Positions 17,610 to 35,454 of a DNA stretch of 35,454 nt are shown piece after piece. The notes below the pieces were generated by a model. The model was not told the DNA's origin, searched no databases, and saw only the letters and a program-made list of their open reading frames with translations. Each line of letters begins with the position of its first letter. Positions within the stretch are counted from its first letter, which is position 1. Source of the DNA: Lentisphaeria bacterium (lineage in GTDB: Bacteria; Verrucomicrobiota; Lentisphaeria; JABSQK01; CAJWLW01); NCBI GenBank assembly GCA_963582235.1, contig CAUZRT010000003.1, forward strand, positions 1 to 35,454. Reading direction: 5' to 3'. Made by a program: the position numbers and the translations under genes.

Positions 17610-17673
17610 GTGGGGTCGGAATGTTCTCTCAAGCCAGGATTAACGAATGCGGGTGCTGAGTGACGCCTTTCAG

Positions 17674-17908
17674 TCCGCCGGCTGGCGGATCCTTGTCCCC
17701 AGTCCCGATCCGCAAGAGTCGGGACGGTCCTCGTCCTCGGAGCGCGTCAGCGCGATCTTCGGACGTTAAAATGAAGCAATAGGAATCGAGGACGAGGACG
17801 ACGCGAGTCGCGTTGCGACAACGTCCCTCACGCGATACAGAACGTCCGGGCTCGGAAACGCGGACTGGAGGCGATCCAGACAGTTGAGCTGATCCGTCGG
17901 CTGACGGA
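17674..17908. repeat. Cluster of short palindromes and an inverted repeat in the hemE-hemH spacer
   Basis: TCCGCCGGCTGGCGGA (17674-17689), GTCCCGA...TCGGGAC (17702-17725), the IR GTCCTCGTCCTCG (17727-17739) / CGAGGACGAGGAC (17787-17799), and TCCGTCGGCTGACGGA (17893-17908). Confidence 0.65.
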
Positions 17909-18120
17909 GTAATTCGCGCGATCAATCACTAGCCGAGTTGGCATCAATGCAGCGATCCGTGAGCCGCCGGCCGTCGGCGGCTGCAGCTCACTTCCGCGTT
18001 CCATTCCCCCATGGACCGGATCCGCTGCCGCTGGCGAGCGGTATACGAGTTCGCTGTTCGCTGAGCGATTGCCCGCGGCGCTTTGGTTTTATCCCATTCA
18101 AACGACACTATTCTGCCGCT

Positions 18121-31479: not shown

Positions 31480-32277
31480 ATGCCGGATAATCCATTCGAT
31501 CTGACAGGCAAAGTCGCAATCGTTACCGGTACCAGTCGTGGTCTTGGGCAGTACTTCGGCCGGGCCCTGGCGCGTGCGGGCGCCGATCTTGTCATTACCA
31601 GTCGCAGCAAGGATACGCTTGAACCGTTCCGGAGCGAAATCGAGAGCCTCGGTCGCAAGGCGTTGCCGCTGGCTCTGGATGTGCGGGACTACGACAGCAT
31701 TCAGCGCATGGCGGCCGAGGCAAAGGCGGCGTACGGCCGGATTGACATCCTCGTCAATAACGCCGGTTGCAATGTTCGTAAACCGTCCGACGACATCACT
31801 TGGGACGATTGGAATCTCGTTCTCGACACGAACCTGCGGGGGATGTTCTTCACAATTCAGGCCGTGGTGCGGGGAATGCTGTCGCGTCGCTACGGGCGCA
31901 TTATCAATGTCGGGTCCGTGACCTCGGTCTTCGGGTGCGGGGGGCTGGCCCCGTATTGTGCCAGCCGCGGCGGCGTCAAGCAATTGACGATGAGTCTGGC
32001 CGACGAGTGGGGGCCGTCCGGCATCACCGTCAACTGTCTGGCGCCGGGATGGTTCAAGACGGAACAGAACAAGGTTCTGTACGAGGATGAAGATTGGGTC
32101 ACCTATATCACGGATCGCATACCGCTGAAGCGGCCCGGACAGCCGCATGACTTGGATGGATGCGTCGTCTTCCTCGCCTCGGATGCCAGCGAATATGTTA
32201 CCGGGCAGATCATCCTCATTGACGGCGGCATCAGCACCGGTGCCATGCGCGCCCTGCCGGGCAATTTCGCGAATTGA
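31480..32277 (+). CDS. SDR family oxidoreductase (gluconate 5-dehydrogenase-like)
   Basis: TGTSRGLG, NNAG, YCASR (the YxxxK position has Arg), VNCLAPG and YVTGQ. Confidence 0.9.
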   Translation: MPDNPFDLTGKVAIVTGTSRGLGQYFGRALARAGADLVITSRSKDTLEPFRSEIESLGRKALPLALDVRDYDSIQRMAAEAKAAYGRIDILVNNAGCNVRKPSDDITWDDWNLVLDTNLRGMFFTIQAVVRGMLSRRYGRIINVGSVTSVFGCGGLAPYCASRGGVKQLTMSLADEWGPSGITVNCLAPGWFKTEQNKVLYEDEDWVTYITDRIPLKRPGQPHDLDGCVVFLASDASEYVTGQIILIDGGISTGAMRALPGNFAN

Positions 32278-32324
32278 GCAACCCCCCCCCGGGTGGTTCC
32301 CCGCCCTCGTAATCGGCGTTTACA

Positions 32325-32449
32325 GGAGGGGTGGCTGAGTGGCTGAAAGTCCCGTTTGCCCGTATGGGCATCACGGGATTTAAGGCAACGGTCTTGCCAC
32401 GTGATCCGATGTGCCGCGTTGCGGCATCACGCGAAAAACCGTCGTGGGC
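32325..32449 (+). repeat. Duplicated 5' 51 nt of tRNA-Ser interrupted by two hairpin inserts
   Basis: 32325-32342 + 32379-32396 + 32435-32449 is identical to 32710-32760. Inserts are at 32343-32378 and 32397-32434. Confidence 0.92.
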
Positions 32450-32458
32450 CCGGCACCC

Positions 32459-32746
32459 ATGAGTCAGATGTATTACGTCTACGTCTTATACAGTATTAGT
32501 CACGACAAACTCTACATAGGCAGTTGTGCCGAACCGGATGAGCGATTGATCGCACACAATGCCGGGCGCGGGGGTTGGGTCCAAGCGATACCAGACCCTG
32601 GACCCGCGTTCTGCTCGAAGAGTATCCGGATCAGCCTGGCGGGTAAGCGCGGGAGGTCCCTAAAATCCGGATGGGGGCGCAGATGGCTGCAAAAATTCCT
32701 TAACTACAAGGAGGGGTGGCTGAGTGGTTTAAGGCAACGGTCTTGA
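32459..32746 (+). pseudogene. Small stand-alone GIY-YIG nuclease, internally scrambled
   Basis: YYVYVLYS...LYIGS...RL..HN.G and LKSG.GR motifs. The central SKRY/RPW..VLLEEY segment is out of frame, and the expected KRE reads KRG. Confidence 0.85.
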
Positions 32747-32801
32747 AAACCGTCGTGGGCTTTTCGGTCCACCGTGGGTTCGAATCCCACCCCCTCCGCC
32801 A
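32710..32801 (+). tRNA. tRNA-Ser(UGA)
   Basis: Acceptor stem GGAGGGG/CCCCTCC, anticodon arm ACGGT-CTTGAAA-ACCGT, long variable arm, GTTCGAATC T-loop, G73 and encoded CCA. Confidence 0.97.
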
Positions 32802-32809
32802 ACTCCCAA

Positions 32810-33193
32810 CTACCGGCATGCAATGCAGGAGATCTCGACGAGCACGTCCTTCGGCAGGCGCGCCGCTTCGATGGCCTGACGCGCGGGCGGCACTTCCCCG
32901 GAAAAATACTCGCTGTAAATCCTGTTGATAGTCGCAAAGTCACCCATGTCCTTCAGAAACAGCTCGACTTTGACGACCCGTTCAAGGCTGCTGCCGGCCG
33001 CTTCGAGGATTGTCTGCAGGTTATCGAGCACTCGTCGCGTCTGTGACTTAATGTCGACACCGACGATCTCGCCGGTCGCCGGATCCAGTGGAATCTGTCC
33101 CGAAACAAACACCAGATCCTCGGTTGCTACCGCCTGCGAATACGGACCGATGGCGGCCGGTGCCGTTTCTGTCGCGATCTTTGAAATACTCAT
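32810..33193 (-). CDS. ridA: RidA/YjgF family enamine deaminase
   Basis: [23 protein letters not shown] and LPKDVLVEI motifs. Confidence 0.93.
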
Positions 33194-33980: not shown

Positions 33981-35288
33981 TCAATAAAAGATCCCAATGT
34001 CGCTGGTGGGCAGTGAGGGGAAATTTTCGGGTTCCACGCGATCGGAAGTCCCCCAACGGCGGGAAAAGGGCCAATAGACGAAGGTTGCGCGCCCGACGAT
34101 GTTGCGGCGCGGGACCACGCCCCAAAAGCGGCTGTCGGCACTGTTCTCACTGTTGTCGCCGAGCAGAAAATATTCATCTTGCTTTAATTCGAAGACATCA
34201 TCGGGACCCGTGAGGTACTGTGCATTGGTCCGCTTTGGATCGGGATTGCTGTAACCGCGATAGCCGCCCTTGAAACTGTAAATGCGGTCGAACGCGCGTT
34301 GTACAGCGCCGCCCACCAATTTAAACTCTGTGTCCCCGGGCGCCTTGATGTACAGTTTACGATTGGCGATTTTCAGCTGGTCTCCCGGCAGGCCGACAAG
34401 CCGCTTGATGTAATACTGGCCGCGAAGTTTGTGGTTGTTCTTGTCGCGGATACCGGCAGTCGTAAAAACAGTAATATCGCCATGTTTGGGCTCGACGAAA
34501 TTATACCAGACCCGATTGACGAAGAGATGATCGCCCAGTTCCAGGTAGCCGCGCGCCAGAACTTGACCCTTGCGGAAGTATTTCTGATCAGCAAGCGGAA
34601 AGTAGTTCAGCCGGTGGCGACGGATGTAGCGCAACACGTTATCCCTGGGGCCCGGCAGTTTGTAATTCTGATCCCCGATCCGGACATTCGTATACGGGAA
34701 GAAGAAGAAGGGGTTGCGCGTTTTGGCGTACTTCAACTTGCCATCTTCCCTGATGACCACGTCGGTGTAACGTCGCGAGAGGTTGACGTAGTTCAACAGA
34801 CGCTTGACCACATTGACGTTGGCCTCGCCCTCATCGCATGGGGTGAATTGGATCCCGGACAGCGTCGGCTGCATACTGCCGGTTGGAATCTTGAATGGCT
34901 GTACGAACGGGGCACGAACGCCCATGACGACGCCGAAGACAACGATGATCAACTCGAGCCATTCCTTGACAACTGTCCATTTGTTCCGCGGCTTGATGTT
35001 GTCGAGCTGCTTCAGGGAGCGGGCGACGAACTCCTCGGTTTTCTCAACATCATCCAGGTTCTCCTGCACGGTCTGGACTCGTTCGGCCATTCCCATCAGT
35101 CTTTCGTTCTCTTGCGCGCTGAGTACGTCCCGATCCCAACGCCAGCGATATCGGATCTGGGAGTCAAGCATTCTCAGTTTTCGCCGCCGGTACTTCTGTT
35201 CACCAAGAAGAAACTGATTATAGATGTAGTGCGCCGGCCAAACAATAAAGAGCAGAACATCAAATAGAATGGATGCGACAAGACCCAT
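33981..35288 (-). CDS. lepB: Signal peptidase I with a long N-terminal extension
   Basis: FKIPTGSMQPTL (Ser), YIKRLVGLPGD (Lys) and GDNSENSADSRFWG motifs. Confidence 0.95.
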   Translation of the reverse strand: MGLVASILFDVLLFIVWPAHYIYNQFLLGEQKYRRRKLRMLDSQIRYRWRWDRDVLSAQENERLMGMAERVQTVQENLDDVEKTEEFVARSLKQLDNIKPRNKWTVVKEWLELIIVVFGVVMGVRAPFVQPFKIPTGSMQPTLSGIQFTPCDEGEANVNVVKRLLNYVNLSRRYTDVVIREDGKLKYAKTRNPFFFFPYTNVRIGDQNYKLPGPRDNVLRYIRRHRLNYFPLADQKYFRKGQVLARGYLELGDHLFVNRVWYNFVEPKHGDITVFTTAGIRDKNNHKLRGQYYIKRLVGLPGDQLKIANRKLYIKAPGDTEFKLVGGAVQRAFDRIYSFKGGYRGYSNPDPKRTNAQYLTGPDDVFELKQDEYFLLGDNSENSADSRFWGVVPRRNIVGRATFVYWPFSRRWGTSDRVEPENFPSLPTSDIGIFY

Positions 35289-35414
35289 ATTTGGGATTTG
35301 GGTTTGGGATTTGGGTTTGGGATTTGGGTTTGGGGATTTGAGTTTGGGGATTTGAGTTTGGGGATTTGAGTTTGGGGATTGCGGCTTGGGGATCCCAATC
35401 CCGAGTCCCCAATC
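35289..35414. repeat. G-rich 6-7-mer tandem repeat abutting the lepB start codon
   Basis: About 15 units of ATTTGGG/TTTGGG/TTTGGGG/ATTTGAG, followed by inverted units (CCCAATC, CCCCAATC). Confidence 0.9.
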
Positions 35415-35454
35415 AATTAGCTCACATTCGACTGCAGGACTTTGATGAATGCGT

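Follow-up and report, generated by a model that had tools for sequence, protein, structure and literature searches.

A probable decayed mobile element with a small GIY-YIG nuclease gene and conserved double hairpins in a tRNA-Ser gene of a Lentisphaeria bacterium

The region between positions 32325 and 32801 of the 35,454-nt stretch of Lentisphaeria DNA analysed here (hereafter, the window) is very probably a degraded copy of a small mobile element resident in tRNA genes. From 5' to 3', the region consists of nucleotides 1-18 of tRNA-Ser(UGA), a single hairpin module denoted P2, tRNA nucleotides 19-36, a decayed double-hairpin module denoted P1P2, tRNA nucleotides 37-51, a dead gene for a GIY-YIG nuclease and an intact tRNA-Ser(UGA) gene. 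The intact unit found in other genomes comprises P1P2, a GIY-YIG nuclease of 80-90 amino acids from the Slx1/UPF0213 clade and a tRNA fragment, either nucleotides 1-36 or nucleotide 37 to the end, which rebuilds a working tRNA gene. This combination of a tiny nuclease gene with conserved double hairpins, present in tRNA genes of many phyla, is apparently undescribed. For the favoured explanation taken as a whole, that is, the identity of the element together with its mechanism and the role of the hairpins, our confidence is moderate.

The window corresponds to contig C3 of a 442-contig, 3.42-Mb assembly (57% G+C, completeness 88.8%). It contains one tRNA gene, the intact tRNA-Ser(UGA) at 32710-32801 on the plus strand (ARAGORN; Rfam tRNA RF00005, 60.5 bits), which is also the sole tRNA-Ser(UGA) that ARAGORN detected in the assembly. 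Searching positions 32301-32820 against the genome with blastn mapped three exact blocks upstream of this gene, all on the plus strand: 32324-32342 (equal to 32709-32727), 32379-32396 (equal to 32728-32745) and 32435-32449 (equal to 32746-32760). Within the first, positions 32325-32342 match 32710-32727 exactly and represent tRNA nucleotides 1-18, namely the 5' strand of the acceptor stem, the 5' strand of the D stem and the D loop up to the conserved GG. The second block (nucleotides 19-36) supplies the remaining D arm, the 5' strand of the anticodon stem and the loop up to anticodon base 2, and the third (nucleotides 37-51) carries anticodon base 3, the 3' strand of the anticodon stem and the 5' strand of the variable arm. 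The part-copy ends in the variable-arm loop, with nucleotides 52-92 absent. It is interrupted by insert 1 (36 nt, 32343-32378), located in the D loop immediately 3' of the conserved GG, and by insert 2 (38 nt, 32397-32434), located between anticodon bases 2 and 3 (gene nucleotides 36/37); none of the insert boundaries can be slid. The initial annotation of this DNA had recognized two hairpin inserts at exact loop positions with unchanged flanking tRNA bases, which is borne out by the 51/51 identity of the blocks, and had noted that both inserts end alike, in GGCATCACG(G/C)GA, as can be read directly. Its hairpin in insert 1 also holds, with the amendment that the first 7 nt (CTGAAAG) are a leader and that the module proper is 29 nt long (32350-32378; TCCCGT-T-TGCCC-GTAT-GGGCA-TC-ACGGGA). 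Folded as DNA, insert 1 reaches -11.8 kcal/mol (z -5.2), which none of 200 shuffled sequences matched, whereas insert 2 reaches -10.5 kcal/mol (z -1.9), matched by 10 of 200 shuffles; taken alone, the hairpin of insert 2 is therefore unremarkable.

The arrangement is real and not an assembly artefact, because independent contigs carry the same sequence. Seawater metagenomes hold it, and contigs from two other DNA runs and two RNA-library runs span both inserts and the gene with 0-1 differences. No indels, joints or insert-less alleles were found in the contigs of these four runs, which drop rare variants and have coverage gaps in some runs. One RNA-library fragment (31756-32325; run X5, record 18), a single case, has adapter at both ends and stops at the first base of the part-copy; the next X5 contig begins at 32329, and an RNA-library contig of run X4 (31871-32423) crosses this point.

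The GIY-YIG pseudogene lies at 32468-32701 on the plus strand, between the part-copy and the intact tRNA gene. Its match to Pfam PF01541 (26.4 bits against a cut-off of 22.6, E 8.5e-6) covers profile positions 1-37 of 78 only, the N-terminal half. For the open reading frame (ORF) that includes it (32411-32746), 30 homologues were retrieved at E<=1e-3, and the 28 that cover most of the ORF share 44-57% identity; intact homologues carry PF01541. When the frame was aligned with 22 homologues (family alignment A2), the family consensus appeared in pieces, in frame 0 at 32468-32578, in frame +1 at 32580-32591 (SKRY), in frame +2 at 32593-32634 (RPWTRVLLEEYPDQ) and again in frame 0 at 32645-32701, revealing three +1 frame shifts. 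Furthermore, KRGRSLK replaces the KRERYLK of the family, so that the Glu, which together with two Tyr and an Arg makes up the catalytic residues, has become Gly. With three frameshifts and the catalytic residue lost, in a sequence confirmed by the independent contigs, this copy is a dead pseudogene, and the system is extinct in the genome of the window.

The open frame runs on into the intact tRNA gene, where its stop codon is the anticodon TGA (32744-32746). Similar fusions were found across the family: the C-terminal tails EGWQSG and EGWLSG of homologues are the translated 5' end of a tRNA, some N-terminal extensions are entire translated tRNAs, and other N-termini (RRSCHV...HAKNR) resemble the window frame through insert 2. 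The nuclease ORFs are thus welded to tRNA sequence, and gene callers extend them through tRNA genes. In loci where the module follows the gene, the frames end in ...GLAT-stop, encoded by GGTCTTGCCACGTGA (anticodon stem-loop plus P1).

To survey the family, one genome per species was scanned with two peptide patterns taken from the alignment, which yielded 59 loci in Verrucomicrobiota, Kiritimatiellia (Pontiella), Lentisphaerae/Victivallales, Bacteroidota, Omnitrophota, Planctomycetota, Patescibacteria and others. A same-strand tRNA gene lies within 500 nt of the nuclease gene in 52 of the 59 loci, upstream in 26 and downstream in 26; 30 of these tRNAs are Ser-UGA, 7 are Ser-CGA and 15 are of other types. 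Within the class of the window the family is patchy (14/41 genomes), and 11 of 19 loci there stand beside tRNAs (Asn, Ala, Cys, His, Met and others). Comparison of the family profile with solved structures returned seven chains at E<=1, all UPF0213 or SLX1 (E 1.7e-7 to 1.3e-4), the best being UPF0213 1ywl (E 1.7e-7) and SLX1 6seh (E 4.4e-7). On the evidence of these profile matches, the family belongs to the structure-specific Slx1 branch of GIY-YIG nucleases and not to the I-TevI branch. NCBIfam had no family for the four proteins searched, PADLOC and PHROGs gave weak matches only (E 0.001-0.009), and neither of two pattern matches in viral contigs was confirmed as a family member. Among the best tRNA-Ser loci of 40 relatives, the 11 loci inspected had no adjoining GIY-YIG gene. 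Elsewhere in the genome of the window (C146:4281-4560), a tRNA-Ser(CGA) gene is followed, about 80 nt on, by the truncated remnant of a different small GIY-YIG gene (FTLYILQS...HNSG), beside which neither P1P2 nor a partial tRNA copy was seen.

Comparison of each locus with itself showed that the partial tRNA copies break at nucleotides 36/37, in one of two layouts. In layout A, tRNA nucleotides 1-36 are followed by P1P2, nucleotides 37 to ~44, the gene and the full tRNA; in layout B, the full tRNA comes first, followed by the gene, nucleotides ~27-36, P1P2 and nucleotide 37 to the end, with the ORF ending inside the module. P1P2 is ~75 nt long and consists of CCACGTG-(hairpin)-ACGTGG, continued directly by TCGCGTT-(hairpin)-TCACGCGA, the whole being flanked by both strands of the anticodon stem. 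Among 20 distinct copies, 98.1% of the cells of the structure pair and both partners vary in 17 of 27 pairs, with a covariation of 0.545 against 0.131 in shuffled alignments (0 of 500 reached the observed value); controls with slid positions gave only 30-43% pairing. The outer stems are nearly fixed and yet covary, CCACGT/ACGTGG having become TCGCGT/ACGCGA in two lineages, and the inner stems vary freely. A covariance model of P1P2 (R1) scores 60-93 bits on 27 of the 59 loci, with the match always at the same anticodon site and in the orientation of the tRNA, with one ambiguous locus (L018).

Beyond these 27 loci, R1 picks up insert 2 of the window (32397-32434, plus strand) at 30.7 bits (E 3.5e-7, for the window plus the loci). 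The score is low compared with the 60-93 bits of full copies, and the site and the flanks GGTCTTG/AAAACCG agree exactly; in other loci the counterpart of the third block retains at least AAAACCG. According to the R1 alignment, 24 interior P1 positions are missing and three outer P2 pairs are broken. What remains of P1 is CCACGTGA, the 5' strand of P2 reads TCCGAT in place of the TCGCGT of the family, and the inner P2 hairpin (TGCCGC-GTT-GCGGCA) is retained together with the 3' strand TCACGCGA; the closest full copy is that of locus L032. Insert 2 is thus best read as a decayed, internally deleted P1P2 that was inherited with the element and later damaged. The single outer helix CGTGAT/ATCACG that had been drawn for this insert joins remnants of two different helices, and its interpretation as an independent event recorded by a dispensable tRNA copy gives way to that of a family junction module occupying the same site in 27 of 59 loci.

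Conservation of P1P2 across phyla is limited to sites adjoining these GIY-YIG genes and tRNA-Ser. When R1 was run with stricter filters on 151 genomes of the phylum, matches were obtained in three genomes, a setting in which the weak copy of the window was missed. In the window, Rfam recognized the tRNA alone at gathering scores, and in 10 intact loci at E<=1 it returned the tRNA and chance matches overlapping it, with no family for P1P2. A hammerhead-like three-way junction was considered for the module and rejected, with junction strands of 4, 0 and 3-4 nt that misfit the hammerhead core.

Direct comparison of related genomes supports mobility of the unit. In the Pontiella family, the same tRNA-Ser locus is found in empty, occupied and decayed states. 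In the empty state (G190), the upstream flank is joined straight to the intact tRNA. The occupied state in Pontiella sulfatireligans (G178, locus L017) has the homologous flank (83%), followed by tRNA nucleotides 1-36, P1P2, nucleotides 37-44, the gene and the full tRNA, and G208 is also occupied at this locus. In the decayed state (G196), a mutated part-copy and ~85 nt of debris, including the last codons of the gene, precede the tRNA. Of 30 relatives, three (G208, G204 and G192) have matches extending into the element and several others match the tRNA alone; the tRNAs of element-free relatives are 98-100% identical to the intact tRNA of the occupied G178 allele. Because empty, occupied and decayed sites with homologous flanks coexist in one family, the element is, by this comparison of alleles, an insertion into a tRNA gene. 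The presence/absence polymorphism comes from the Pontiella family and not from the lineage of the window; in the window's own family, SDR and RidA genes did not adjoin tRNA-Ser(UGA) in seven regions, which provided no empty-site comparison.

The tRNA piece travels with the element, since the part-copy of locus L014 fits the tRNA of another lineage better than its own, from which it differs at three positions, two of them in the acceptor stem. The duplicated part ends variably, at nucleotide 44, 51 (window) or 53 (L032), more in keeping with repair synthesis than with precise transposition. Tandem arrays of whole or gene-less units are present in L038 (399-nt period), L041, L055, G176 and L125. 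The array of L125 (genome G179) comprises four gene-less units with a 176-nt period, each made of a part-tRNA with a D-loop insert and P1P2, placed before tRNA-Ser(CGA).

Insert 1 belongs to a second, simpler class of modules. Its consensus is YCSCGT-T-(variable hairpin)-TC-ACGSGR, strand-specific; 97.4% of cells pair in 26 sequences, with a covariation of 0.665 against 0.131. A model of this P2 module (R2), built from these 26 copies with those of the window and of L014 left out, returned insert 1 as its top match in the window (34.1 bits, E 1.5e-6, plus strand; 11.6 bits on the minus strand), and insert 1 can accordingly be classified, at the level of this model, as a secondary single P2 module. 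A near-identical module occupies the same D-loop position in L014, from an unrelated Verrucomicrobiota assembly (86% identity over 80 nt with flanks).

Secondary inserts were located by chaining exact tRNA blocks in all loci. D-loop inserts occur at nucleotides 18/19 (window and L014), 22/23 (L023), 13/14 (L038), 21/22 (L055) and 15/16 (L067, tRNA-Asp), a variable-loop insert in L029, and T-loop inserts in L027 and L034, which share the same insert, and in L038. By eye, further D-loop inserts were recognized in L033 (14/15) and in the four-unit array of L125 (17/18), as was a decayed insert in G008. Of these 9-11 events, not one falls in a stem, and the D, variable and T loops make up about a quarter of gene positions, a proportion estimated from annotation and not from a formal test. 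The P2 hairpin of L034 contains a nested P1-type module. The claim that palindromes enter loops thus stands insofar as related modules recur in the loops of other partial copies; the active insertion process attached to it is inferred.

P2-type modules are also dispersed. In the genome of the window, R2 gave at least 35 matches at E<=0.01 among the 150 of 2517 candidates that were scored, and the outer stem of insert 1 is common to a dispersed family with the core TTTCCGCC-NCG-GCGGA-CGTGAG-TCCCGT-T-GGGACG...CGTCCC-TCACGGGA, to which 19 of 38 loose-pattern matches belong (16 copies aligned). One intergenic member lies in the window at 17808-17835 on the plus strand (R2 22.7 bits, E 0.0011). The genome G179 has seven near-identical mosaic repeats (L118-L124) of at least 230 nt, each with three P2-type modules, and a metagenome scan for the module of insert 1 returned a single match, at an intergenic spot away from tRNAs. 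The exact motif proposed in the initial annotation as a search key, TGCC-N3-8-GGCATCACG, occurs four times in the genome, as the two inserts and as chance-like matches on C83 and C261 that lack a hairpin context. A motif confined to this place and the lack of any insert-less allele had been named there as grounds for giving up the idea; apart from the two chance-like matches the exact motif is indeed confined to the inserts, and the contigs of the four runs show no insert-less allele, but the generalized module is widespread.

How the element would move can be sketched from these features. The only conserved protein partner of the module is the Slx1-type nuclease gene. The nuclease would cut the tRNA gene in a loop, and the break would be repaired from an element-bearing copy, whereby the element is copied in. 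The part-copy, interrupted by P1P2, would be uncuttable and would serve as the template, and a rebuilt tRNA that is cut again and repaired from the neighbouring part-copy would add units and thus generate tandem arrays. We regard this scheme of cutting and templated repair as evenly balanced between right and wrong. More tentative still, and possible rather than likely, is the proposal that the nuclease recognizes the helices as folded DNA, with single P2 modules reaching other loops and intergenic sites through the same nuclease activity.

Several points weigh against this account. The 59 loci were found via two peptide patterns, and related loci are not independent. Cutting, the cut site and the substrate (DNA or RNA) are all inferred. 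The rebuilt intact tRNA is a persisting target, and a simple homing endonuclease would keep cutting its host; we read the arrays as the outcome of such recutting, but they also fit plain slippage or unequal recombination. More distant GIY-YIG relatives beside other tRNAs (tRNA-Asn, tRNA-Met and tRNA-Cys) carry other hairpins where the gene meets a partial 3' copy, within the anticodon or T loop, none of which R1 matches. The junction insert of L068 lies inside a stem, the sole stem insertion seen; there (L068:2360-2468, a distant relative in a Planctomycetota metagenome-assembled genome (MAG), tRNA-Leu-CAG), the T stem of the partial tRNA copy is split at 63/64 by a perfect 36-nt palindrome belonging to another family. 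Little ties the nuclease to the dispersed P2 modules: the genome of the window has its at least 35 matches and no intact family gene in an assembly that is 88.8% complete, and the Pontiella genome has an intact gene and no dispersed modules above the control (4 matches vs 3). The missing insert-less allele, as far as the contigs of the four runs go, counts on the same side.

Of the competing explanations, the one that survives best, though rather unlikely, is that of the initial annotation, namely that palindromes are inserted singly into loops by a structure-guided process, the dispensable tRNA copy recording two such events and the inserts protecting the target from the nuclease. In 9-11 part-copies the single modules occupy the D, variable or T loop, at positions that differ and so imply independent events; a P1-type module is nested in the P2 hairpin of L034; P2 modules are dispersed in two genomes; and the D-loop modules of the window and L014 are near-identical, whereas their GIY-YIG genes are only ~50% identical and show no DNA alignment. 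For insert 2, however, the explanation conflicts with the constancy of the junction module, and loop-only positions could reflect selection that keeps stems. The contigs of the four runs offered no allele caught before an insertion. The proposed immunization of the target is doubtful, given that the functional tRNA remains an intact target that is 98-100% identical to that of element-free relatives, leaving the host gene unprotected, and that the arrays suggest repeated events.

An RNA role is unlikely to a similar extent or slightly more so. With transcription from the tRNA promoter, the nuclease mRNA would carry the part-tRNA and P1P2 as a structured leader or trailer that controls processing, stability or translation; in a variant that shares this standing, the RNA would hold the nuclease in check, as the repeats of type III toxin-antitoxin systems restrain their toxin. 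In layout A the native upstream flank precedes the part-copy, and the gene and the working tRNA would therefore be transcribed through the module. The ORF begins 10-25 nt past the module or ends inside P1 (...GLAT stop), the orientation of the module is fixed relative to the tRNA, arrays of module units precede the gene in G176, and two sets of RNA-library contigs cover the region, although DNA carry-over is possible in these. Yet the module precedes the gene in layout A and follows it in layout B, some modules survive alone where the gene is absent, no Rfam family matches, and no terminator-like site was found; the promoter and terminator scan of 32150-32900, with 0 and 0 sites, was uninformative. 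G-U pairs occupy 0 of 480 P1P2 stem cells but 35 of 714 (4.9%) tRNA-Ser stem cells of the same loci (Fisher 1.3e-8, the related sequences not being independent). Zero G-U pairs would be expected if the DNA itself, or both strands, must fold, which suggests without proving a DNA structure; the lack may nevertheless be compatible with an RNA role, a further point to be set against the favoured explanation.

A bolder version, distinctly unlikely in our estimate, sees P1 and P2 as a new class of mobile folded-DNA modules. Here the minimal Slx1-like nuclease would nick the single-stranded loops of extruded stem-loops and insert or copy modules there, and tRNA genes would be the richest source of extruded stem-loop DNA. 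We know of no transposition chemistry for the GIY-YIG fold. If true, this version would amount to nuclease-driven, structure-targeted transposition or homing unrelated to HUH, DDE, serine and tyrosine enzymes, and would account at once for the tRNA-locked elements and for the hairpin repeats that are dispersed.

That the inserts are ordinary host repeats, REP/BIME-like hairpins moved by a Y1 (RAYT-type) transposase or by recombination that landed in neutral DNA, is improbable. The genome is indeed rich in hairpin repeats (CGTGAGTCNCGT 70 times; TCCGTC-N3-5-GACGGA 298 times, both strands), the dispersed family has the outer stem of insert 1, and a Y1_Tnp-like gene flanked by REP-like hairpins is present. 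The restriction of P1P2, across phyla, to these GIY-YIG genes and tRNA-Ser argues against it, as does the Pontiella genome, which has P1P2 at its GIY-YIG/tRNA-Ser locus alone. Moreover, REPs carry a 5' GTAG that the modules lack, the GTAG-type hairpin of this genome being a different repeat, and the Y1 gene carries a stop. The Y1_Tnp (RAYT/IS200-like) gene, at C81:5653-5829, has an in-frame TAG and is flanked by GGCTTCCAGCCTGTG-type hairpins, which also occur, with 5' GTAG, in the mosaic repeats. No P2 module was found beside it in the 1.5 kb read, where the flanking hairpins are of a different type, and gene and hairpins probably constitute a separate REP system.

A further reading sees the inserts as small introns or self-cleaving RNAs whose removal yields a working tRNA. 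Their position in loops would fit, one of them being in the anticodon loop, a site of group I introns in bacteria, but this reading is close to refuted; the initial annotation had already found introns not obvious, because the copy lacks a T-arm and the acceptor 3' strand. The interrupted copies are never full-length (that of the window lacks nucleotides 52-92, others lack nucleotides 1-26 or everything from 45 onwards), searches at E<=1 in 10 intact loci and at gathering scores in the window gave no intron or ribozyme family, and RNA-library contigs carry both inserts unspliced, with no joints.

The favoured element of nuclease, P1P2 and tRNA fragment can be set against known systems. Phage T4 SegB is reportedly a GIY-YIG gene in a tRNA gene cluster, and amplification of a segment has reportedly been observed there. 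SegB-type enzymes are I-TevI-like, have a separate DNA-binding domain and are phage-borne, whereas the present family consists of an 80-90-aa Slx1/UPF0213-type domain alone, resides in bacterial chromosomes with none confirmed in viral contigs, has a partial tRNA duplication and comes with a conserved double hairpin. Integrative elements offer a second parallel. Work by Williams in 2002 is said to have placed their target within tRNA genes in the anticodon loop or the T loop. Crossover takes place in the loop between the inverted repeats that encode the stem, and a carried tRNA piece restores the gene and leaves a partial copy. Loop crossover, a gene-restoring piece and a leftover partial copy are thus shared features, but the present element has no integrase, its unit measures only ~0.35 kb, the duplication can affect the 5' or the 3' part and has variable boundaries (nucleotides 44, 51 and 53), and P1P2 sits at the junction. 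REP/BIME repeats with RAYT and integron attC sites are folded single-strand DNA sites, likewise dispersed or arrayed, whose stem base is conserved, whose signature bases are unpaired and whose tip varies. REP and attC are handled by HUH or tyrosine enzymes, whereas here the sole conserved partner is a GIY-YIG nuclease.

Free-standing GIY-YIG homing endonucleases likewise have their gene among or next to tRNA genes and are likewise thought to spread by double-strand-break repair (PMC13096335, PMC2988022). SLX1 and bacterial UPF0213 (YhbQ-like) proteins are the closest solved sequences to the family (6seh, 1ywl, 1zg2). SLX1 cuts branched DNA near branch points (PMC6902002), and an Slx1-like domain fused to a tRNA methyltransferase homologue has been described (PMC1564403). 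SLX1 needs SLX4 and has a RING domain, unlike the lone domain of this family, and the passages covered describe no tRNA-gene association, partial duplication or hairpin module for SLX1/UPF0213 (PMC6902002, PMC1564403). Double-hairpin elements of fungal mitochondria are short GC-rich hairpin pairs, thought to be mobile, that lie between genes and inside rRNA genes and are highly conserved across species (PMC10085805, PMC3787672). These elements are mitochondrial and, in the passages covered, have no assigned enzyme and show no connection with tRNA loops or a nuclease gene. The family thus differs from SegB, integrative elements, double-hairpin elements and REP/attC in enzyme clade, size, tRNA piece and module. 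In the literature covered, which excluded supplements and subscription journals, no bacterial tRNA-linked GIY-YIG genes with hairpin modules were described, and papers combining GIY-YIG with tRNA-Ser concerned, in their accessible parts, fungal mitochondria or phage only.

If the favoured explanation is true, a minimal selfish element of ~350 nt exists in several bacterial phyla, with relatives in Patescibacteria, and enters essential tRNA genes yet leaves them functional, since the missing tRNA piece arrives with it. It would provide the first biological context for the large, unstudied bacterial group of UPF0213/Slx1-like GIY-YIG proteins, and it adds a compact, strongly covarying nucleic-acid module that has no Rfam entry. 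It would also account for several oddities of MAGs, namely stray tRNA fragments, pseudo-tRNAs in tandem arrays and ORF calls that extend too far, through tRNA genes, and the spread of small hairpin repeats, a long-standing question, would become testable in a culturable host (Pontiella).

Two further observations concern other parts of the window. The dispersed P2-type module at 17808-17835 is embedded in an intergenic mosaic of hairpin repeats (17610-17937), in which a TCCGTCGGCTGACGGA hairpin near 17894-17909 is the same small hairpin as that found at the GIY/tRNA-Asn junction of L081, in another genome. At the end of the contig, on the minus strand (35174-35453), a long signal-peptidase-like ORF (33981-35288) is readable farther upstream through the low-complexity repeat PNPNPKPKSQTQIP... 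and off the contig end.

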